Shown here one piece after another: positions 17,741-61,944 of a DNA stretch of 64,000 nt. The notes under the pieces were generated by a model. That model worked only from the letters and a program-made list of their open reading frames with translations, did not search any database and was not told the DNA's origin. The DNA comes from Clostridia bacterium (GTDB taxonomy: Bacteria; Bacillota; Clostridia; Christensenellales; CAG-917): the NCBI GenBank assembly GCA_017618055.1, contig JAFZVB010000014.1:71663-135662 (forward strand). Direction: 5' to 3'. How positions within the stretch are numbered: position 1 is the first letter of the stretch; every line of letters starts with the position of its first letter. The position numbers and the translations under genes were made by a program.

Positions 17741-17826
17741 TGGTGGAGAGGGATGGATTCGGACCATCGAAGTCGAATGACAACAGATTTACAGTCTGCT
17801 CCCTTTGGCCGCTCGGGAACCTCTCC
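17741..17826 (-). tRNA. tRNA-Tyr (GTA)
   Basis: The reverse complement is GGAGAGGTTCCCGAGCGG...GACTGTAAATC...long variable arm...TTCGAATCC...CCTCTCCACCA. The CCA end is encoded. Confidence 0.95.
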
Positions 17827-17834
17827 ATAAAAGT

Positions 17835-17910
17835 TGGAGCTGGTGAACGGAATCGAACCATCAACCTGCTGATTACAAATCAGCTGCTCTGCCTATTGAG
17901 CTACACCAGC
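17835..17910 (-). tRNA. tRNA-Thr (TGT)
   Basis: The reverse complement is GCTGGTGTAGCTCAATAGGCAGAGCAGCTGATTTGTAATCAGCAGG...TTCGATTCC...CACCAGCTCCA. Confidence 0.95.
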
Positions 17911-17936
17911 ATCATTTTTCTTTTTTAGTTTACTTG

Positions 17937-18012
17937 TGGTGCCTTGGGGCGGAGTCGAACCACCGACACAGGGATTTTCAGTCCCTTGCTCTACCTGCTG
18001 AGCTACCAAGGC
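17937..18012 (-). tRNA. tRNA-Phe (GAA)
   Basis: The reverse complement is GCCTTGGTAGCTCAGCAGGTAGAGCAAGGGACTGAAAATCCCTGTG...TTCGACTCC...CCAAGGCACCA. Confidence 0.95.
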
Positions 18013-18059
18013 ATATGTTTTGCGGCAGAAGATTTGTCCTCAACTGCCGCTCACCACTT

Positions 18060-18136
18060 TGGCGACCCGGAGGGGGCTCGAACCCCTGACCTCCAGCGTG
18101 ACAGGCTGGCGTACTAACCAACTGTACTACCGGGCC
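18060..18136 (-). tRNA. tRNA-Asp (GTC)
   Basis: The reverse complement is GGCCCGGTAGTACAGTTGGTTAGTACGCCAGCCTGTCACGCTGGAGG...TTCGAGCCC...CGGGTCGCCA. Confidence 0.95.
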
Positions 18137-18144
18137 AAGATTTT

Positions 18145-18221
18145 TGGTGGGCCTTCACGGACTCGAACCGCGGACCGATCGGTTATGAGCCGACTGCTCT
18201 AACCAACTGAGCTAAAGGCCC
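18145..18221 (-). tRNA. tRNA with CAT anticodon, body resembles tRNA-Ile2 (lysidine) more than initiator or elongator Met
   Basis: The reverse complement is GGGCCTTTAGCTCAGTTGGTTAGAGCAGTCGGCTCATAACCGATCGG...TTCGAGTCC...AAGGCCCACCA. The choice between Ile2 and Met cannot be settled by eye. Confidence 0.85.
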
Positions 18222-18246
18222 TCACAAGTAGCATATCGCTTTCTTT

Positions 18247-18322
18247 TGGTCGGGGCGACTGGACTTGAACCAGCGGCCTCATGGTCCCAAACCACGCGCG
18301 CTACCAACTGCGCCACACCCCG
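18247..18322 (-). tRNA. tRNA-Pro (TGG)
   Basis: The reverse complement is CGGGGTGTGGCGCAGTTGGTAGCGCGCGTGGTTTGGGACCATGAGG...TTCAAGTCC...CCCCGACCA. Confidence 0.95.
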
Positions 18323-21207: not shown

Positions 21208-21284
21208 TGGCAGGGGAGACGCGAATCGAACACGCAACCGACGGTTTTGGAGACCGCTACTCTACCTAATTGAGCTACTCCCCT
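21208..21284 (-). tRNA. tRNA-Trp (CCA)
   Basis: The reverse complement is AGGGGAGTAGCTCAATTAGGTAGAGTAGCGGTCTCCAAAACCGTCGG...TTCGATTCG...CTCCCCTGCCA. Confidence 0.95.
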
Positions 21285-54856: not shown

Positions 54857-55419
54857 TCTAAATTCCTCTCGGCTTGGGATTTTCTCATATAAAATGGAAC
54901 AAAAACGTCCACAAATTCGTTATTCTTAAACTTTTTCATCACAATTTGGTCTATTGCTTGCACTTCTTCAATCTCTGGAGTGCTTAAAACGTTAGAAAAA
55001 TCATATTCTTTCCCAGCTTCAATGAAGTCTGTTTCAACGATTTTTCCGTCTTTACACTTAGCTAAATAGGTATTTCCATGTCCAGCGTCTACAGAAACCA
55101 TAACCTCGCCTCTATTTTGTGCAAGGATTTCAAATGTAGAAAAAGATATTCTCTTTGCCTTATTTGCATAAGACATAGCTGTCATGGAAGAAACACCAAT
55201 TCTAATACCAGTAAAAGATCCTGGACCAACGTTAACAGCAAAGTTTTCTATGTCTTTTATATCCATATTAGCTTTGCTAATAATTTCGTCTATGGTTGGC
55301 ATTAATGAAGTAGAATGTTCTGCCTTCTCCATCTCTTTTCTAGTATATAAAAGCTGTTCCCCATTACGGAGAACAACTGTTAATGTAGAATTTGTGGTAT
55401 CTATTGCAAGATAATTCAT
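54853..55419 (-). CDS. tsaB: tRNA t6A biosynthesis protein TsaB
   Basis: 188 aa, short form, with N-terminal YLAIDTTNSTLTVVL and GPGSFTGIRIG. Confidence 0.85.
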   Translation of the reverse strand: MNYLAIDTTNSTLTVVLRNGEQLLYTRKEMEKAEHSTSLMPTIDEIISKANMDIKDIENFAVNVGPGSFTGIRIGVSSMTAMSYANKAKRISFSTFEILAQNRGEVMVSVDAGHGNTYLAKCKDGKIVETDFIEAGKEYDFSNVLSTPEIEEVQAIDQIVMKKFKNNEFVDVFVPFYMRKSQAERNLE

Positions 55420-56528
55420 TATTGCTGTTGTTCCTTAATTGTAAACTTTCTATGTGTTTCGTCTAGCACATCTATTTTAACAACAATGATTTTACCAGTC
55501 AATGAATTGTACTTATTCCATTCTATAATGGTGATACCATTATCCATTCTATCCTCAATACCTAATTCGTAGATATCTTCCTCGTTTTCAATACGATACA
55601 TATCCAGATGATATAAAGGATATTTCCCAGAATCATATTCATTCATTATAGTAAATGTTGGAGATGTTATTTCTTCTTGTACTCCAAGTGCCTTTGCTAA
55701 ACCTTTTGTAAACGTTGTTTTACCTGCACCGAGTTCACCTTCAAGAATTATCTTTTCGTTTCCTTGTAAGCCCTTAGAAATCGCCTCAGCTAATTTAAAT
55801 GTATCTTCTTCAGATGCAGAATAATAAACTCCATCCTCATCAACCAAATCTTCTAAGGTTTCTTCCTTTTTCTTCTTTAATGAAGTTCCATCCCAATGTA
55901 ATATCTTAGATAGTTTCTTATAAAATAAGAAAGTAATTAATGTTACTATTATATATCTCAACAAATTGAATGGGATAACAGCAACACCCAAATACCATGC
56001 CCAGAAGTTATCTACAGTAATTCCTTTATATAAAGATGAAAGCATTCCAACTATTCCGTTCATATTATTTCCGAAATACAAATTGAGATAGAAAGGAACT
56101 GATATCCATCTATTTACTATTAAAGCCATACCTGTAGCAAATATTGTAGAAACCAACATTCCATACAATGCACTCTTCTTTGTCTTAAAGATCTTATAGA
56201 TTATAGATGCAGGAAGAACGAATGCAACACCAAGTAGAATATCTGTTAATTCCCCAACATACATTGTGCTAGAAAGTGGGAACTTTAATAAGCACTTAAA
56301 GATAATTACCAAGCAACCAGATATTGGTCCCATTGAGAATCCAGCAAGTAATGCAGGAAGTTCTGAGATTTGGAAATCAAAGAAAGATGGAAACATAAAT
56401 GGAAGCTTAATAAAATGTCCGAGATAATATAGCAAGAATGAAATAGCTGTAAGCATTGCCATTTTAGCAACCCAAGATGCTGAAAGTCTAAAGACTTTTT
56501 TCTTGTCTAATGTTTGCAATTTTGTCAT
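55419..56528 (-). CDS. tsaE: fusion of an ECF-transporter S component (RibU-like riboflavin binding subunit) and the t6A ATPase TsaE
   Basis: 369 aa. Residues 1-~205 form six TM helices with the RibU-like block VIPFNLLRYIIVTLI. A K/E-rich linker follows. Residues ~228-369 are TsaE (GELGAGKTTFTKG, SPTFTI, HLDMYR). The gene is preceded by an FMN riboswitch. Confidence 0.8.
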   Translation of the reverse strand: MTKLQTLDKKKVFRLSASWVAKMAMLTAISFLLYYLGHFIKLPFMFPSFFDFQISELPALLAGFSMGPISGCLVIIFKCLLKFPLSSTMYVGELTDILLGVAFVLPASIIYKIFKTKKSALYGMLVSTIFATGMALIVNRWISVPFYLNLYFGNNMNGIVGMLSSLYKGITVDNFWAWYLGVAVIPFNLLRYIIVTLITFLFYKKLSKILHWDGTSLKKKKEETLEDLVDEDGVYYSASEEDTFKLAEAISKGLQGNEKIILEGELGAGKTTFTKGLAKALGVQEEITSPTFTIMNEYDSGKYPLYHLDMYRIENEEDIYELGIEDRMDNGITIIEWNKYNSLTGKIIVVKIDVLDETHRKFTIKEQQQ

Positions 56529-56534
56529 AAATAA

Positions 56535-56690
56535 AAACTCCTTTGTTGGAGCTTTTGAAAAAGTATAACCTATTTAACACTTTTCCCATCCAGACTATAA
56601 CTGTCGGTAAAGGAATTTCACCTTTTCAACACCGAAGTGCTCGCAGACTATACTGCCGGTGAGGAATTACACCTCGCCCCAAAGTACTTA
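56535..56690 (-). promoter_or_regulatory. FMN riboswitch (RFN element) with an SD-sequestering or terminator helix
   Basis: The minus strand reads GGGGCGAGGUGUAAUUCCUCACCGGCAGUAUAGUCUGCGAGC...GGUGAAAUUCCUUUACCGACAGUUAUAGUCUGGAUGGGAAAAG. This matches the invariant RFN blocks. Downstream, AAAGCUCC-N6-GGAGUUUU pairs the SD and is followed by U-rich sequence. Confidence 0.9.
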
Positions 56691-56691
56691 T

Positions 56692-56720
56692 ATTTTAATG
56701 TCATAAAATGTAGTAGTCAA
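56692..56720 (-). promoter_or_regulatory. Candidate promoter of the FMN-riboswitch operon
   Basis: The minus strand reads TTGACT-N17-TAAAAT. The -35 element abuts the stop codon of the helicase-nuclease ORF. Confidence 0.55.
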
Positions 56721-59700
56721 CTACATTAATACACCCTCATCAAATAAGGATTGTTGTATTGCAGTAATCTTATCCTTAGATGCAACAATTATATCCGCAA
56801 TATTCTCATATGATTTCATGAAAGAATTAGGAATGAATATTAATAGTATTCCATGTCGTTTACAAATATCCATTTTCCTTCTATCTGATACTTCTCTTGA
56901 AACCATACCTAAATGTTCTCCACCAGTCAATTCAAATGCTATAACCGGTTTTTCACCTAAAAATCCTTTTTCAAATAGAACCAAATCAAACTCTTTGTTT
57001 TCATCTAGCTGCTCATCATCAAAAAGTTTATATAATGGAACATTTCGTTTTGCATTATATTTCTTATGACAAGAACAGAAATGAGAAACTGTTTTGTAAA
57101 ATTCGTCTTCTGCTTCACTTCCATTTGATCTTCCAATCTCAATACAAACTGATTCATTTGGAGGAACTTCAACATTTCCATTGTTCTTTGCATAATCTAA
57201 TAGATGGTATAAGTCATCACTCTTATCTGAGAATAACCCGACTGCTTGAGTATCTGCTGCTATAACGAGTTTTGATTTAGCCCTTGTAGTTGCAACATTT
57301 ATTAATTCGTAGTTATTTTTTAGCCATGCAAATGTTTTCTTACTAGATTTTAAAGAGATTGCTGTAGAAAAGATTATTGTATCTTTTTCTGCACCTTGTA
57401 ATGAATGGACTGTGTCACACTTTACATCGGTTATCTTTTCAAATTCTAGCATCTTATTAATTAACTCTTTTTGATTTACAAATGGAGTCACAATAAATGC
57501 ATCTTTTATCTTATTTCTCTTTATGTAATTAATTATTGCTGAAGCCTCTTCAAAAGCTTCGTTCTTTTGTCTAACGTTTATATTCTTTACATCCAATAAT
57601 TGTATCTCACCCAATTCATTTAGGAATGAAGTATTCAACGAATTGTTATAGTATCTTTGGTTTGAGAATGATATGATTTTCTTCCCACATCTATAATGAT
57701 ATTCTAGAAGAATATATTTTGAGATATTATCCGTTGCTATCATTACATCCAAGATAGAATGCGTTTTGTAGTTATAGTTACTAGACACATTATACTTATC
57801 CATTAATGCAAAGTTGACATTATCTTCTAAAACTATTACTGGTCTTAACTGGTTAGGATCTCCTACAAGCAATAAATTCTCTGCTTTAGATATTGGGATC
57901 AATGCTGTTGCAACATTACATTGTCCTGCCTCATCCATAACAACCAAATCAAACATGAACTTATTTCTACCCAATCTTCTTGATGATATATTTGTTGAGA
58001 ATATAATTGGGAATGCGTCAGTCAACAGTTTCATATTATTATCATCTTGTGTCCACTTATTAAATTCAGAAACTCTCTTATCATCATCTTGGATACTACA
58101 TATATCAACAAGAGTCTTATATCTTGGCAATTTTAGTTTGTTTATATATTGAAGTGATTTGAAGAATAAGAACTGCGATAATCTGCTATTCTCATTAAGT
58201 GGAATAAACAACGATGTAACTTCTTCATTGCTAACTTCCGGATAATCCTTTAAAGATAACTTTAAATCATTTATTTTTTCTTTAACTGTATCTATTATTT
58301 TACTGCTATTTTCTCCAAATGATTCTACCAATCTTTTTGAACTCTTTAAGCAATTAATGATATCTATTCTTTTTTCTTGCTTATTTAATAATTCAATCAA
58401 CCTTGCATTTTGGTTGTCTGTTGAAACTTTGATTTTGTTCAACATCGCATCTTGAGGTTCTTTGTCAAAAGTGTAATTGAATAATTCTTTTATTCTTAAT
58501 GTTGTTTTTTTAACATCATTTACATTGCCCAATCTCAAATATGGAAAATTGATTTCTTTGTCATAATATTTAAACTTAAGTTTCTCCACAATTCCATCTA
58601 CTGGTTTATTGTTGGATGAACAAATAAGCATATTCCTATCATTATAGAAAGCGTTTAGTGCAACATTTATTATGGTTTGAGTTTTACCCGTTCCTGGAGG
58701 TCCTTGCACATATGTTACAGGATACTTCATGGCATTATATAAAACTCGCATTTGGTTAATATTAATTTTCTTGTCTAGAATGATGAGAGATGGTTCTTTT
58801 CTTCTAATATTATTTCTTTTAGAAATATTGCCAAAAAATGATTTTAATGGAGTTGGCAATGCATTGTTTAAATATTTTTCTTCAATTGCCTTATATGTTT
58901 CATTCAAATCTGTTGCAGTATCCTTTCTAAGCAACATAATATCTGGTCTAGAATCTAACACTTCACCTGTATGCAAGTTCTCTCTTATAATATCTTGACA
59001 TTCATTGAAATTATCCGAGAGCATCCTTTCAAATTCATCAACATCCATATTGACATAATTGAATAAGGAGTGTCTTCTTCCCTCAATTGTGAAAGATTGA
59101 TTTACTCTAACTATGTCTTGTAAAACTAATGATTTCTTTGCAGGATCAAATGATAAATTATAGTATGCAACCAAATACTTCTTCTTGCCCATATCTATAG
59201 ACAATTTGTTAATAGCTAATGCATAACTTGAATTATTTGCTTTATTAATGTCATAACGATAAATATCTCTAATAATTGTGCTTAATTGGTTATCATCCAA
59301 TTGATAAATCTTGTTTTTTCTTAGAACATTTAAATCTATTCCTTTTATGCACTCATATTGCTCTTGATATGGATCACAGTCCAACATATTACACTCTAAA
59401 TAATAATTTAGAACGTTGTAATTAAATAAGTCATAATGCAACCATGGACATAATCTAAAATTCTTTTCTATCTTTTCAACCAAGTCATCAGACCTATCAT
59501 ATGAAGTCATATCAATGACCTGTGCACTTTTAATACCATCAAAGGAAATCCATGTATCTAGGACTTCCGTTGATTTATTCTCATTAAAAATAGTTACAAA
59601 TAATGATTTTCTTTTAAAATTGATATCTTTTATTGCAATCCAATAGAAAGTATTTTCTTTATTCTTATTAACATAAGATATTTTTAACCATTTACTTTCC

Positions 59701-59735
59701 TTTATGGCTTTAGAAATACTTTCTCCAATATCCAT
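56721..59735 (-). CDS. large multidomain protein: sensor-like N-terminal region (WYL-like?) + Upf1/DNA2-type SF1B helicase + C-terminal DUF2726/Vsr-like PD-(D/E)xK nuclease domain
   Basis: 1004 aa. Helicase motifs are VQGPPGTGKT (343-352), VVMDEAGQ (598-605), LLLVGDPNQLRPV (621-633), TVHSLQGAEKD (775-785) and INVATTRAK (812-820). The C-terminal region reads EFDLVLFEK...VIAFELTGGEH...DRRKMDICKRHGILLIFIP. The composition is N/K/I-rich and AT-rich compared with the neighbours. Confidence 0.8.
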   Translation of the reverse strand: MDIGESISKAIKESKWLKISYVNKNKENTFYWIAIKDINFKRKSLFVTIFNENKSTEVLDTWISFDGIKSAQVIDMTSYDRSDDLVEKIEKNFRLCPWLHYDLFNYNVLNYYLECNMLDCDPYQEQYECIKGIDLNVLRKNKIYQLDDNQLSTIIRDIYRYDINKANNSSYALAINKLSIDMGKKKYLVAYYNLSFDPAKKSLVLQDIVRVNQSFTIEGRRHSLFNYVNMDVDEFERMLSDNFNECQDIIRENLHTGEVLDSRPDIMLLRKDTATDLNETYKAIEEKYLNNALPTPLKSFFGNISKRNNIRRKEPSLIILDKKININQMRVLYNAMKYPVTYVQGPPGTGKTQTIINVALNAFYNDRNMLICSSNNKPVDGIVEKLKFKYYDKEINFPYLRLGNVNDVKKTTLRIKELFNYTFDKEPQDAMLNKIKVSTDNQNARLIELLNKQEKRIDIINCLKSSKRLVESFGENSSKIIDTVKEKINDLKLSLKDYPEVSNEEVTSLFIPLNENSRLSQFLFFKSLQYINKLKLPRYKTLVDICSIQDDDKRVSEFNKWTQDDNNMKLLTDAFPIIFSTNISSRRLGRNKFMFDLVVMDEAGQCNVATALIPISKAENLLLVGDPNQLRPVIVLEDNVNFALMDKYNVSSNYNYKTHSILDVMIATDNISKYILLEYHYRCGKKIISFSNQRYYNNSLNTSFLNELGEIQLLDVKNINVRQKNEAFEEASAIINYIKRNKIKDAFIVTPFVNQKELINKMLEFEKITDVKCDTVHSLQGAEKDTIIFSTAISLKSSKKTFAWLKNNYELINVATTRAKSKLVIAADTQAVGLFSDKSDDLYHLLDYAKNNGNVEVPPNESVCIEIGRSNGSEAEDEFYKTVSHFCSCHKKYNAKRNVPLYKLFDDEQLDENKEFDLVLFEKGFLGEKPVIAFELTGGEHLGMVSREVSDRRKMDICKRHGILLIFIPNSFMKSYENIADIIVASKDKITAIQQSLFDEGVLM

Positions 59736-59746
59736 TTATAAATTTA

Positions 59747-60415
59747 CTACTCCCAAATAACGTTTTCTTTTCCTGCACCAACCTCGAAGTTGTACATTAC
59801 AATTCCAAGATCCATTTTAGAACATGGTCCGAACTTGGATATTGCCCTGCATTTTCCGTTTTCTTTAAGTGTTATCTTGAATTTTTGTTGGTTTAATGCC
59901 GTTGGAGCCATTAAAGCTGCCTCCACACCCTTTTTAAACCACTCAGGAGCCTCTCCACTTTCAACTTCGAATAAAGTCTCAACTGGCTTGTTTTTGTGGT
60001 CTACGCCCTGTTTTACGCCATATCCAAAACATACTCCTAAATAGAACCTTTCGTCCTTTCCAACAGTAACTAGTGCTTTGGATTTGCTAAATGAAGATGC
60101 ACATATACAAGAATTCATTCCTAGTGATTGTATTAATAATACAAGTTTCTCTGTATAATATCCTACATCTACATCTCTATCTTTCTTTCCAATAATTGCT
60201 ATGTAGTTTCTAACTCCAGTGAAATTACCATAATGTGCTAAGAAATTCGTAAATGTGTTAGGATCATTTACAACTAATTGGAAATTTAAATTTTGTTCTT
60301 TATTAATTTTTGCTATTTCGTCTTGAAGAATTTTTATAGATTCTTCTGGAACAGCATCTTCTTTATACTGACGGACACTATGCCTCGATTTTAATGCCTC
60401 TAATTCTGTCATCAT
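59747..60415 (-). CDS. nitroreductase family protein
   Basis: 222 aa with N-terminal RHSVRQYK and a nitroreductase-fold pattern. Confidence 0.8.
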   Translation of the reverse strand: MMTELEALKSRHSVRQYKEDAVPEESIKILQDEIAKINKEQNLNFQLVVNDPNTFTNFLAHYGNFTGVRNYIAIIGKKDRDVDVGYYTEKLVLLIQSLGMNSCICASSFSKSKALVTVGKDERFYLGVCFGYGVKQGVDHKNKPVETLFEVESGEAPEWFKKGVEAALMAPTALNQQKFKITLKENGKCRAISKFGPCSKMDLGIVMYNFEVGAGKENVIWE

Positions 60416-60424
60416 ATAAAACCT

Positions 60425-60781
60425 CTATTTCTTTGGTACGTAATCTGTTACGTTCTTTCCATTGCCCCAAAGGGTTTCAATAGAATAGTACATACGTGTG
60501 TTCTCTTCAAAAATGTGGACAATAACATCACCGTAGTCTAATAGTGCCCACTTGGATCCTCTCATACCTTCAGAATGTATTGGTGTAACACCATACTCTT
60601 TGTCCATCTTTTCATCCAATTCTTCTGCTAATGACTTTAAATGTGGTAATCCTTTTGCTGTGCAAATAACAAAATAGTCTGCTACAGATGATTCGTTATT
60701 GAAATCAATAATCTTAATACTTTCTGCTTTGTTTGCATCTAAGATTTCACAAATCTTGTCTCTTAATTCTTCTGTTGTCAT
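60425..60781 (-). CDS. rsfS: ribosome silencing factor RsfS
   Basis: 118 aa with DYFVICT and WALLDYGDVIVHIF. Confidence 0.9.
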   Translation of the reverse strand: MTTEELRDKICEILDANKAESIKIIDFNNESSVADYFVICTAKGLPHLKSLAEELDEKMDKEYGVTPIHSEGMRGSKWALLDYGDVIVHIFEENTRMYYSIETLWGNGKNVTDYVPKK

Positions 60782-60801: not shown

Positions 60802-61944
60802 TTATATCAATGGAATATCTTCCATTTGTTCCTTATAATAATCATATGCTTCTTGAGTTAATTTGTACATAGGCAATCCCCTTTCAATAATGGAATAATA
60901 TGTGTGCTTAAGTACTGTTAAAAAGCCTAGATTAAAGTCTTTTAATGCTATCTCTCTTATTTTTGGTATTGGTTCATAAGTCCTGTCTTCCGAAACAGAG
61001 TCTGCTGTATATATGAGCTTTTCAAATATATTCATATTTGCTTTTGCACTTGTATGATATCTAATACCATTTAAAATATCTTCATCTTCTATACCAAAAT
61101 CTCTCTTTGCTTTCTCTGCTCCTAAGAATTGATGTAATACAGGAGAACCAACTGCATCCTCTGGAATATCTAATCCGTCTAAACTCTTTCTTTGTTTGGC
61201 ATTGTCATGGAGCAATCCAGATAAAAATACTTTTGTAAAGTCTAATCTTAAATCTCCTCTTGTATTAAGGGTCACAGCCATAAGTGCAACGTGTAAAGAA
61301 TGGTTAAATAAGTCTTCAGTTTGGTATGAATGTAATTGTTCTAGAACGGAGTCATAATCATCAAAAAGATTGTTCTTCTTAATGTAATTAAGGACATCCT
61401 CGGTTATATCTTCTCCAGGATCTAGATTAAGAAGTAATTTTGCTCTTATTATTGTAGATGAACAATGGTCTCCAAAATAATCTAAAACAAAGTACTCTCC
61501 ACCAATCTCTTTTTTGTATTTTTCAATGAGAGTATTTACATCTTGGTAATGGTTTCTAGGTACAACAATTAAAGGACAAATTTTTACTATCTCCTCTGGT
61601 TTGTACCAAGTGCGGAATCTCTCTAGTGAATCTCCACCTATTATATACATAATATCTCCATACTTTTCTTTTAGTATTGGAAGATAATTTGCAGTATAGT
61701 TCTCGCCCTGCATATCCTTCTCTATTGTATCTACTATGACTTCCTTACAAAGACTACCAAAAGCAATCTTAGAAAGCTCTACACGATGTTCAAAGGATAA
61801 ATAGCCTTTACTTTTATATGGAGGATAACAAGTTGGAACTATAACAAGTCTATCTGGTTTATATGTCCGGATAGCTTCTTTACAAAGTTCTATGTGTTCT
61901 ATGTGTGGTGGGTCGAAAGAACCCCCAAATATTATTGTCTTCAT
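60802..61944 (-). CDS. nadD: fusion of nicotinate-nucleotide adenylyltransferase NadD and an HD-domain YqeK-like phosphohydrolase
   Basis: 380 aa. The N-terminal half has GGSFDPPHIEH (H/TxGH). The C-terminal half has HD motifs (HSLHVA...LLHDNAK). In Bacillus, nadD and yqeK are adjacent separate genes. Confidence 0.85.
   Translation of the reverse strand: MKTIIFGGSFDPPHIEHIELCKEAIRTYKPDRLVIVPTCYPPYKSKGYLSFEHRVELSKIAFGSLCKEVIVDTIEKDMQGENYTANYLPILKEKYGDIMYIIGGDSLERFRTWYKPEEIVKICPLIVVPRNHYQDVNTLIEKYKKEIGGEYFVLDYFGDHCSSTIIRAKLLLNLDPGEDITEDVLNYIKKNNLFDDYDSVLEQLHSYQTEDLFNHSLHVALMAVTLNTRGDLRLDFTKVFLSGLLHDNAKQRKSLDGLDIPEDAVGSPVLHQFLGAEKAKRDFGIEDEDILNGIRYHTSAKANMNIFEKLIYTADSVSEDRTYEPIPKIREIALKDFNLGFLTVLKHTYYSIIERGLPMYKLTQEAYDYYKEQMEDIPLI

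Follow-up and report, generated by a model that had tools for sequence, protein, structure and literature searches.

The gene and its products

The window analysed here is a stretch of 64,000 nucleotides (nt) of contig JAFZVB010000014.1, from an uncultured gut Clostridia bacterium. Our subject is a single minus-strand gene within it, the last of a string that runs from nadD-yqeK through rsfS and a nitroreductase gene (Table 1). The encoded protein joins an N-terminal module, a superfamily 1B (SF1B) helicase and a C-terminal domain predicted to be a nuclease of the restriction-endonuclease (REase) fold. As closely related strains lack the gene, the protein most likely belongs, as a relative without a name so far, with the known single-protein anti-phage helicase-nucleases.

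An earlier note, made from the DNA letters of the window, had drawn attention to this open reading frame (ORF) of 1004 codons. The frame is real and unbroken, but its strand needs correcting to minus: read on the plus strand, the same interval is full of stops, and that reading was rejected. In the minus-strand translation, all the motifs quoted in the note are found at the residues given for them. An identical public protein (P0001), labelled 'MAG: DNA helicase [Clostridia bacterium]' (MAG, metagenome-assembled genome), sits on a contig of 410,945 bp.

Analysis of base composition bore out the claim that the gene is visibly AT-rich. Its G+C content of 0.292 is the lowest of the 53 genes in the window (mean 0.342, standard deviation 0.018), but this is not a codon-usage signal. 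The G+C content at third codon positions (GC3, 0.242) and the codon-usage distance are typical of window genes, so the AT-richness comes from the amino-acid composition and not from a foreign codon bias. Foreign codon usage was rejected on these grounds, and the gene is either derived from a donor of similar composition or a long resident.

Table 1. Positions of the helicase gene, its parts and its flanking features in the window
Feature	Position	Strand	Remarks
Whole ORF, 1004 amino acids plus stop	56721..59735	-	N-terminal module, SF1B helicase and predicted REase-fold nuclease
Predicted five-stranded SH3/Sm-like beta-barrel, WYL-like by fold	59511..59699	-	Residues ~13-75; AlphaFold2 (AF2) predicted local distance difference test (pLDDT) >90
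Predicted helical and beta module, family-specific	58836..59510	-	Residues 76-300; AF2 model
RecA1, first part, with Walker A GPPGTGKT and motif Ia	58536..58766	-	Residues 324-400; K351 codon 58683-58685
L/K/N/D-rich insertion inside RecA1	58011..58535	-	Residues 401-575; spanned by AAA_11
RecA1, second part, with motif II DEAGQ and motif III GDPNQLRPV	57756..58010	-	Residues 576-660
RecA2 (AAA_12) with HSLQGAEKD and VATTRAK	57231..57755	-	Residues 661-835
Predicted DUF2726/Vsr-type PD-(D/E)xK nuclease domain	56781..57125	-	Residues 871-985; AF2 model, Foldseek, Pfam, conservation
Segment present here, ~300 nt instead in two near-identical contigs	56722..59741	.	3020 nt; blastn against L007 and L022
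TM1586-type nitroreductase, upstream neighbour	59747..60415	-	Stop 11 nt before helicase ATG
Sigma-70-like promoter TTGACT-17-TAAAAT of downstream operon	56692..56720	-	Begins at the base after the helicase stop; right-hand breakpoint
FMN (flavin mononucleotide) riboswitch leader of the ECF-S-component::TsaE gene	56574..56690	-	Rfam RF00050, 105.3 bits, E 1.9e-23

The helicase core belongs to the Upf1-like SF1B class

Two Pfam models cover the centre of the protein with scores above the cut-off of 27 bits that applies to both, AAA_11 (PF13086) at residues 324-635 (E 2.6e-33, 116.3 bits) and AAA_12 (PF13087) at residues 671-828 (E 2.2e-19, 70.2 bits). Motifs I, Ia, II, III, V and VI are complete. 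The strings lie at residues 345-352 (GPPGTGKT, with K351), 601-605 (DEAGQ), 625-633 (GDPNQLRPV), 777-785 (HSLQGAEKD) and 814-820 (VATTRAK). The PDB sequence matches are all Upf1-like SF1B proteins, namely Sen1, IGHMBP2, Upf1/Nam7, DNA2, nidovirus helicases, ZNFX1 and Aquarius, the DNA2 match covering RecA2 only. The Upf1/DNA2-type SF1B class and the motif set proposed in the earlier note are thus confirmed, and both helicase models that it suggested searching score over threshold. From this family membership, the motor would be expected to translocate 5'->3'.

Mapping conservation on an alignment of 46 diverse family members (29-49% identity), which is also the sample behind the counts of 46 given below, shows no change in the Walker A motif, in motif II, in motif III or at the Arg finger. 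The invariant positions are G345, P346, P347, G350 and K351, together with D601, E602, Q605, G625, D626, Q629, L630, P632 and R818. The insertion that had been described between motifs Ia and II is real (residues ~401-575) and is the least conserved segment of the alignment. It is located where Upf1-type helicases carry their accessory 1B/1C insertions.

The C-terminal domain is predicted to be a DUF2726/Vsr-type nuclease

The strings EFDLVLFEK (915-923), VIAFELTGGEH (931-941) and DRRKMDICK (951-959) had been read as the signature of a DUF2726/Vsr-like REase fold, and structure prediction, Foldseek, residue conservation and family-level Pfam matches all support that reading. The AF2 model of residues 841-1004 (pLDDT 72.5) displays the alpha-beta-beta-beta-alpha-beta core of REases, and its strands 2 and 3 each bear conserved acidic residues. 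A Foldseek search of the PDB with this model, one of the checks proposed beforehand, retrieved REase-fold proteins, the best being BstEII (E 4e-4). Weaker matches (E 0.04-0.6) were VC1899, D212, TT1808, BsaWI, NGO0050 (DUF559, 3hrl), I-Bth0305I (3r3p), RecU, VRR_NUC and TnsA.

The putative catalytic residues are E876 in helix 1, D917 in strand 2, E935 and H941 in strand 3, and D951 and K954 in helix 2. Among the 46 members, conservation reaches 90% or more at E876, D917, E935 and K954, and closer family members show little or no variation at H941, D951, G938 and E915. The DUF2726 model itself (PF10881) stays below its gathering cut-off of 24.7 bits for the window protein, with 19.2 bits for the full-length sequence and 23.0 bits for the isolated C-terminus, but it matches 29 of the 46 members at E <= 0.01 (best 2e-12). 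MTES_1575 and DUF559 match seven members (best 5.3e-05) and five members, respectively, and the window protein matches DUF2726 alone. A survey of PD-(D/E)xK enzymes grouped DUF2726 with Vsr and DUF559 (PMC3424549), and Anantharaman et al. called it a REase-fold DNase (PMC3710099). No functional or defence study of DUF2726 was found in the literature searched.

The N-terminal module contains a barrel that is WYL-like by fold

For residues 1-330, AF2 generated a model with a pLDDT of 80 and a predicted TM-score (pTM) of 0.78. The model comprises a barrel (17-73), helices (83-163), a three-stranded sheet (169-211) and further helices and strands to about residue 290. W16, Y21, W32 and I68 of the barrel are nearly invariant. 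In a Foldseek search of the PDB, the WYL proteins BrxR, PafBC, CapW and DriD take almost all the top ranks (E 3e-3 to 9e-2, probability 1.0, ~85 aligned columns), while Tudor and chromo barrels rank lower. The E-values are weak (>=1e-3). The match probably falls on residues 17-73, judging from the run of strands assigned by DSSP. WYL-domain phage proteins were again matched in a search against BFVD. On this model, the barrel is SH3/Sm-like and WYL-like by fold.

At the sequence level the picture is different. The Pfam WYL model (PF13280) matches none of the 46 members, which leaves the two checks proposed for this region, Foldseek and PF13280, with opposite outcomes. Comparison by hhalign with five PDB WYL segments was not significant (probability <=2%). 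The queries were a 25-sequence alignment and an 85-sequence N-terminal alignment, and the PDB segments had been fetched with a consensus probe. The PADLOC WYL hidden Markov model (HMM) matches three of 25 family N-termini (best E 0.0032). Given the Pfam and hhalign results, WYL homology is not supported by sequence profiles, and we claim the resemblance of fold alone. Of the two WYL/SH3-like beta-rich segments suggested in the earlier note, one therefore corresponds to a barrel with WYL fold matches; a second barrel and backing by WYL sequence profiles did not emerge.

No Pfam, PHROG or PDB-sequence match was obtained for residues 1-320, and the N-terminal profile retrieved chance-level PDB sequences such as the EFHC2 DM10 domain and ascorbate peroxidase. 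Likewise, residues 76-300 gave no Pfam, PDB-sequence or confident fold match; this module is nevertheless present at 99% occupancy in the 46 members. No nuclease fold or motif was seen in the N-terminal region.

The three-part architecture is shared by a large family

The note had called the protein an orphan, which is wrong at the family level. A word-indexed protein search yielded more than 100 full-length homologues of 54-69% identity, almost all from uncultured Clostridia of gut and rumen samples; with the N-terminus alone, the same kind of search returned only fragments of the same family. When 50% identity representatives were searched exhaustively with an HMM of just the N-terminal module, at least 469 clusters matched at E <= 1e-3 (157 at E <= 1e-30). 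Nearly all of these are about 1000 residues long, with the module at residue 1 and the same architecture. Every segment of the protein is at >=97% occupancy in the 46-member alignment. Together with the invariant helicase motifs, this alignment indicates that the three-part architecture is fixed and under selection.

No full-length relative was found in PLSDB plasmids, in GenBank phage records or among the matches listed for IMG/VR, where a first scan was dominated by generic Walker A patterns. This outcome fits a host-side gene.

Three anaerobic gut fungi, Anaeromyces, Neocallimastix and Orpinomyces, also have annotated full-length homologues (P0103, P0105 and P0108; 54-57% identity), and these keep all catalytic residues. 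Neocallimastix has two copies, separated by 6 kb on one contig of 2.34 Mb (L021, 8001-10967 and 16964-18967), beside an ankyrin-repeat gene. This suggests a true transfer from bacterium to fungus followed by duplication, and not contamination.

A strain-variable gene in a slot of changing content

Two contigs closely related to the window lack the gene. One (L007, an uncultured Clostridia MAG) was found by scanning reference genomes with the TsaE-fusion protein encoded downstream; its neighbour proteins are 96-98% identical to those of the window, with 92.9% nucleotide identity. The other (L022, 95.7% nucleotide identity) was the sole locus from a metagenome scan. By blastn, positions 1-64 and 379-3000 of L007 correspond to window positions 59805-59742 and 56721-54090, and positions 1-331 and 624-2363 of L022 to 60072-59742 and 56721-54981. 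Both contigs show the order nitroreductase, ~300 nt, riboswitch. The breakpoints lie at the nitroreductase stop and at the -35 element of the FMN-riboswitch promoter, so that the ORF has a leader of 6 nt and a trailer of 0 nt. In a third relative (L008), the contig ends 36 nt past the helicase stop.

The sequence that stands in place of the gene (L007 65-378; L022 332-623) contains a 55-residue reverse-strand ORF (MSMDDTNIH...) with no Pfam match. It is flanked by an iterated motif, AAAAACCGGACATTCGAGC, in two near-exact copies and a diverged third, and by AAAAAATGGTACATT in two copies, and it also carries a 21-nt inverted repeat. The repeat motif is absent from the whole 64-kb window. The cassette may be a miniature element, an operator array or a small regulatory gene.

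More distant genomes retain the nadD-rsfS...tsaE order with different contents in the gap. A PAP2 phosphatase lies between rsfS and the tsaE-fusion gene in L013 (1500-2600). In L010 (3300-10000), the same place holds 6.7 kb of unrelated, mostly unannotatable ORFs, one of them weakly like REP_ORF2-G2P (3.7e-4). In the lineage of the window, this place is taken by the nitroreductase, with or without the helicase. Such varied contents may mark a hot spot for integration. Since the gene is missing from near-identical contigs and the gap is variously filled, it is strain-variable cargo in a variable slot; the polymorphism that the note had proposed looking for is present, and its picture of an inserted cargo gene agrees with breakpoints at the ORF edges.

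The homologues are not universally present and syntenic, as would be expected of a core enzyme of the lineage. They occupy 11 different neighbourhoods, which have no neighbour in common with the window or with each other except for repeats within the same lineage, and across which neither a conserved partner gene nor a flanking integrase or transposase was found. Two of the neighbourhoods are defence islands. The L002 homologue comes directly after genes for a Type IV methyl-directed restriction enzyme (9e-103), an AbiJ_NTD3-kinase of the Stk2/PD-T4-6 type (1e-36) and a PDC-S07 NUDIX candidate (6.5e-46), and the L003 homologue has AbiLi (6e-89) and AbiLii (9.5e-22) 1.5 kb downstream of it. Two further neighbourhoods have HipA-HTH or Fic genes nearby. 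One lineage has its homologue after gapdh, and there a stretch of about 850 nt on the upstream side of the homologue holds no called gene (L004 6150-7000, L028 7150-8000).

Neighbouring genes in the window

The context described in the earlier note was recovered in full: the nadD::yqeK-rsfS string followed by the nitroreductase, a distant Shine-Dalgarno sequence (GGGAG, 14 nt upstream of the helicase ATG) and a stop codon abutting the next -35 element. The nadD and yqeK parts form the proposed fusion, a single ORF of 380 residues at 60802-61944 (-) that aligns full-length in L010 and L013; rsfS lies at 60425-60781. A promoter-like site at 61980-61952 heads the string, after the pckA terminator. 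As the nitroreductase stop lies so close to the helicase ATG, the two genes are probably co-transcribed from this nadD-operon promoter.

Downstream, the order is FMN riboswitch, a fusion of an energy-coupling factor (ECF) S component with TsaE (Pfam ECF_trnsprt and TsaE), tsaB and rimI. The riboswitch, which controls the fusion gene, lies outside the helicase gene and marks the conserved flank. The unit of riboswitch and fusion gene spans 55419-56690 (-), and both halves of the fusion align also in L009, L010, L011 and L013; its S component is presumably riboflavin-type, RibU-like. Elsewhere in the window, six tRNA genes lie within 600 nt (17744-18322, -), with a seventh 3 kb off (21211-21284, -).

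Interpretation and alternatives

Most points of the earlier note that could be checked by computation held, and none of the computable results that it named as refuting was observed. Taken together, the conserved catalytic motifs, the fixed architecture, the strain variability, the scattered contexts, the defence islands and the precedent of Mokosh lead us to favour, with moderate confidence, a stand-alone, horizontally exchanged helicase-nuclease that would most likely protect against phage or plasmid. The defence role, its trigger, the substrate (DNA or RNA), the polarity and the coupling of the domains are what we infer in the following scheme. The N-terminal module, with its WYL-like barrel and family-specific domain, would recognise a nucleic-acid cue associated with an invader, for example exposed single strands or replication intermediates. 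Recognition would load or license the Upf1-type SF1B motor, which would move 5'->3' on the strand with ATP and so position the C-terminal DUF2726/Vsr-type PD-(D/E)xK nuclease for cleavage of the DNA that the motor travels along.

Several observations weigh against a defence role. No mobile-element genes that would explain its transfer flank the gene. Defence islands account for two of the 11 contexts, most of the others being metabolic or housekeeping, and the GC3 and codon usage of the gene are native-like. The relation of the barrel to WYL proteins is one of fold, and the IMG/VR negative covers the listed helicase-pattern matches only. In addition, the IGHMBP2-family model scores 136 bits against 151 bits for that of the Mokosh helicase MkoC; the two being nearly equal, helicase similarity alone cannot separate defence from housekeeping.

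Some of these points are shared with the alternative that fares best, although we consider it unlikely: an accessory genome-maintenance enzyme, Dna2- or AddAB-like, whose substrates would be stalled forks, flaps or damaged DNA and whose barrel would be an auxiliary binder of single-stranded DNA, as in WYL-containing Pif1 helicases. The SF1B core does match DNA2, IGHMBP2 and Sen1, the gene is probably co-transcribed with housekeeping genes, and its codon usage is native; most homologues have metabolic surroundings, and the WYL regulators DriD, CapW and PafBC sense damage-derived single-stranded DNA. A repair enzyme is, however, harder to reconcile with the absence of the gene from near-identical strains, with the lack of synteny and of any rec, uvr or replication link in the 11 contexts, and with the two defence islands. 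The nuclease of Dna2 is N-terminal, so the domain order here would be reversed.

The choice of substrate leads to a second alternative, RNA-directed surveillance, in which a Upf1/Mov10-like helicase would carry the nuclease to RNA-DNA hybrids or to transcripts that are foreign or aberrant. Upf1, Sen1, IGHMBP2 and MkoA/MkoC, which are the nearest relatives of the helicase, act on RNA or on RNA and DNA, and RNA binding occurs among WYL proteins, as in WYL1 of type VI-D CRISPR systems. The nuclease points the other way: its fold matches are restriction enzymes, resolvases and TnsA, the characterised Vsr, DUF559 and REase-fold relatives are, to our knowledge, DNases, and no RNase-type domain is present. 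We regard an RNA target as improbable.

Least probable of all is a selfish, homing-like gene whose Vsr-type nuclease (I-Bth0305I fold) would cut empty sites so that repair copies the gene in. This would explain insertions between conserved genes that are exact to the ORF edges, as at the breakpoints in the window (6 nt leader, 0 nt trailer). Many unrelated insertion sites are tightly packed into host operons, no integrase or transposase is nearby, and I-Bth0305I and DUF559 are among the fold matches. Against this, homing genes normally reuse one cognate site whereas the 11 sites here all differ, a 3-kb helicase fusion is atypical of a homing endonuclease, the other allele is a different ~300-nt cassette and not an empty site, and the helicase motifs are strongly conserved.

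Returning to the anti-phage or anti-plasmid helicase-nuclease, a wider proposal can be put forward more tentatively. The ~1000-residue family may be a new form of single-protein immunity, so far without a name, among the Clostridia of gut and rumen. In it, a previously undescribed ~300-residue sensor, made of a WYL-like barrel and a novel domain, would gate a Upf1-type motor coupled to a DUF2726 DNase. The protein would have moved intact to anaerobic gut fungi, where it is present in tandem copies and may serve in defence against viruses or transposons.

The design itself is unsurprising to specialists, following the known logic of helicase-nuclease defence in a large unnamed family. Mokosh type II, Hhe and Nhi represent a growing class of single-protein bacterial immunity whose triggers are poorly understood, and the present family, with its at least 469 clusters at 50% identity, is a large one that occurs commonly in metagenomes of gut and rumen. 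A DUF2726 REase in place of a phospholipase D (PLD) nuclease behind the same helicase clade would illustrate the modular exchange of effectors. With its two cleanly separated alleles, the site provides an isogenic comparison that arose naturally, and the fungal copies would be a case of a bacterial defence-type gene kept in eukaryotes. With its size, an unstudied DUF2726 effector, natural alleles and intact gut-fungal copies, the family is a worthwhile experimental target.

Comparison with known systems

The earlier note could not assign the protein to any named system, and the same conclusion follows from model searches: neither the PADLOC 2023 nor the NCBIfam 2026 models capture the family full-length, and no named defence family fits the whole protein. 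When the defence and NCBI annotation models are ranked by full-protein score, the defence helicases MkoC and MkoA come first. In the PADLOC ranking, MkoC (7.9e-45; family best 3.5e-61) and MkoA (2.6e-40) are followed by PDC-S37 and Hhe, and the best-matching stretches fall inside the helicase region (residues ~260-850), as was found when the suggested PADLOC check was made.

The N-terminal barrel is most like those of BrxR, CapW, DriD and PafBC, its top fold matches. Unlike these WYL sensors, the window protein has no winged helix-turn-helix (wHTH), and its barrel stands at the N-terminus of an enzyme and not in a transcription factor. Makarova et al. described WYL domains fused to SF-I helicases and REases, which they predicted to be ligand sensor-effector combinations (PMC4012209).

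Nhi and Dna2 likewise unite an SF1 helicase with a nuclease in a single polypeptide. In both of these, the nuclease is N-terminal to the helicase, and the order in the window protein, with its nuclease at the C-terminus, is the reverse. No Nhi model is among the PADLOC matches of the protein or of its family. As a defence encoded by a single gene, Nhi has been validated (cited in PMC11470126).

The order of helicase then DUF2726 recurs in enterobacterial AAA_11/AAA_12-DUF2726 proteins (WP_236479692.1), which are likewise encoded by an accessory gene. Of 5426 complete E. coli genomes, 648 (12%) contain it, under no other label than 'AAA domain-containing protein'. Identity to this type is 24% over residues 293-966, and its N-terminus of ~175 residues is unrelated and without the family-defining module. 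This distinct protein indicates that the pairing of helicase and DUF2726 is widespread and unnamed, so that a phenotype found for the present family would help to annotate many genes. On the E. coli plasmid pB39_V (L020 5560-8241), an 893-residue AAA_11/AAA_12/DUF2726 protein (DUF2726 8.4e-13) is encoded next to PAPS-reductase and ParB genes and flanked by insertion sequences; O157:H7 and O104:H4 strains are among the others that have the 893-residue type.

Hhe (Gao et al. 2020) and the MTES_1575-type giants (Anantharaman et al. 2013) unite an SF1 Upf1-like helicase with a Vsr-family REase in one modification-independent protein (PMC3710099). The window protein has the same kind of helicase before its predicted DUF2726/Vsr-type domain, and seven of the 46 members match MTES_1575. 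The Hhe proteins are longer, at ~1800-1900 residues, with an N-terminal DUF4011/HEPN region, in some cases together with a transglutaminase, and a C-terminal DUF3320 wHTH. Neither the window protein nor the 46 members have a Pfam match to DUF4011/HEPN or DUF3320, and the transglutaminase is absent from the window protein. The NCBIfam model Hhe_antiphage (NF042953) scores 71.5 bits against a cut-off of 2000, over the helicase stretch only. With Hhe, ProA and PLuB at 70-90 bits against cut-offs of 1000-2000, identity with any of the three was rejected.

The closest parallel is Mokosh type II. Mokosh systems combine a COG1112/Upf1-like helicase with a PLD nuclease, and type II defence requires both ATP binding by the helicase and the nuclease (10.1101/2022.05.11.491447). 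MkoC and the window protein share a Upf1-like COG1112 helicase (AAA_11/AAA_12) followed by a C-terminal nuclease in one polypeptide, encoded by a stand-alone gene, and the PADLOC MkoC model matches all 46 family members. The two differ at their ends. The predicted nuclease of the window protein is of the DUF2726/Vsr-type REase fold and that of MkoC is a PLD; no HxKxxxxD (HKD) motif was found in the protein, and no PLDc Pfam match in it or in the 46 members, for which reason membership of Mokosh was rejected. The best-matching stretch of the MkoC model is at 670-949 of its 1136 positions, leaving its C-terminal end unmatched, and the ~300-residue N-terminal module bears no sequence relation to MkoC. 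By analogy, a protein of this design, with its own module in front and a different nuclease behind, probably works in a way similar to Mokosh.

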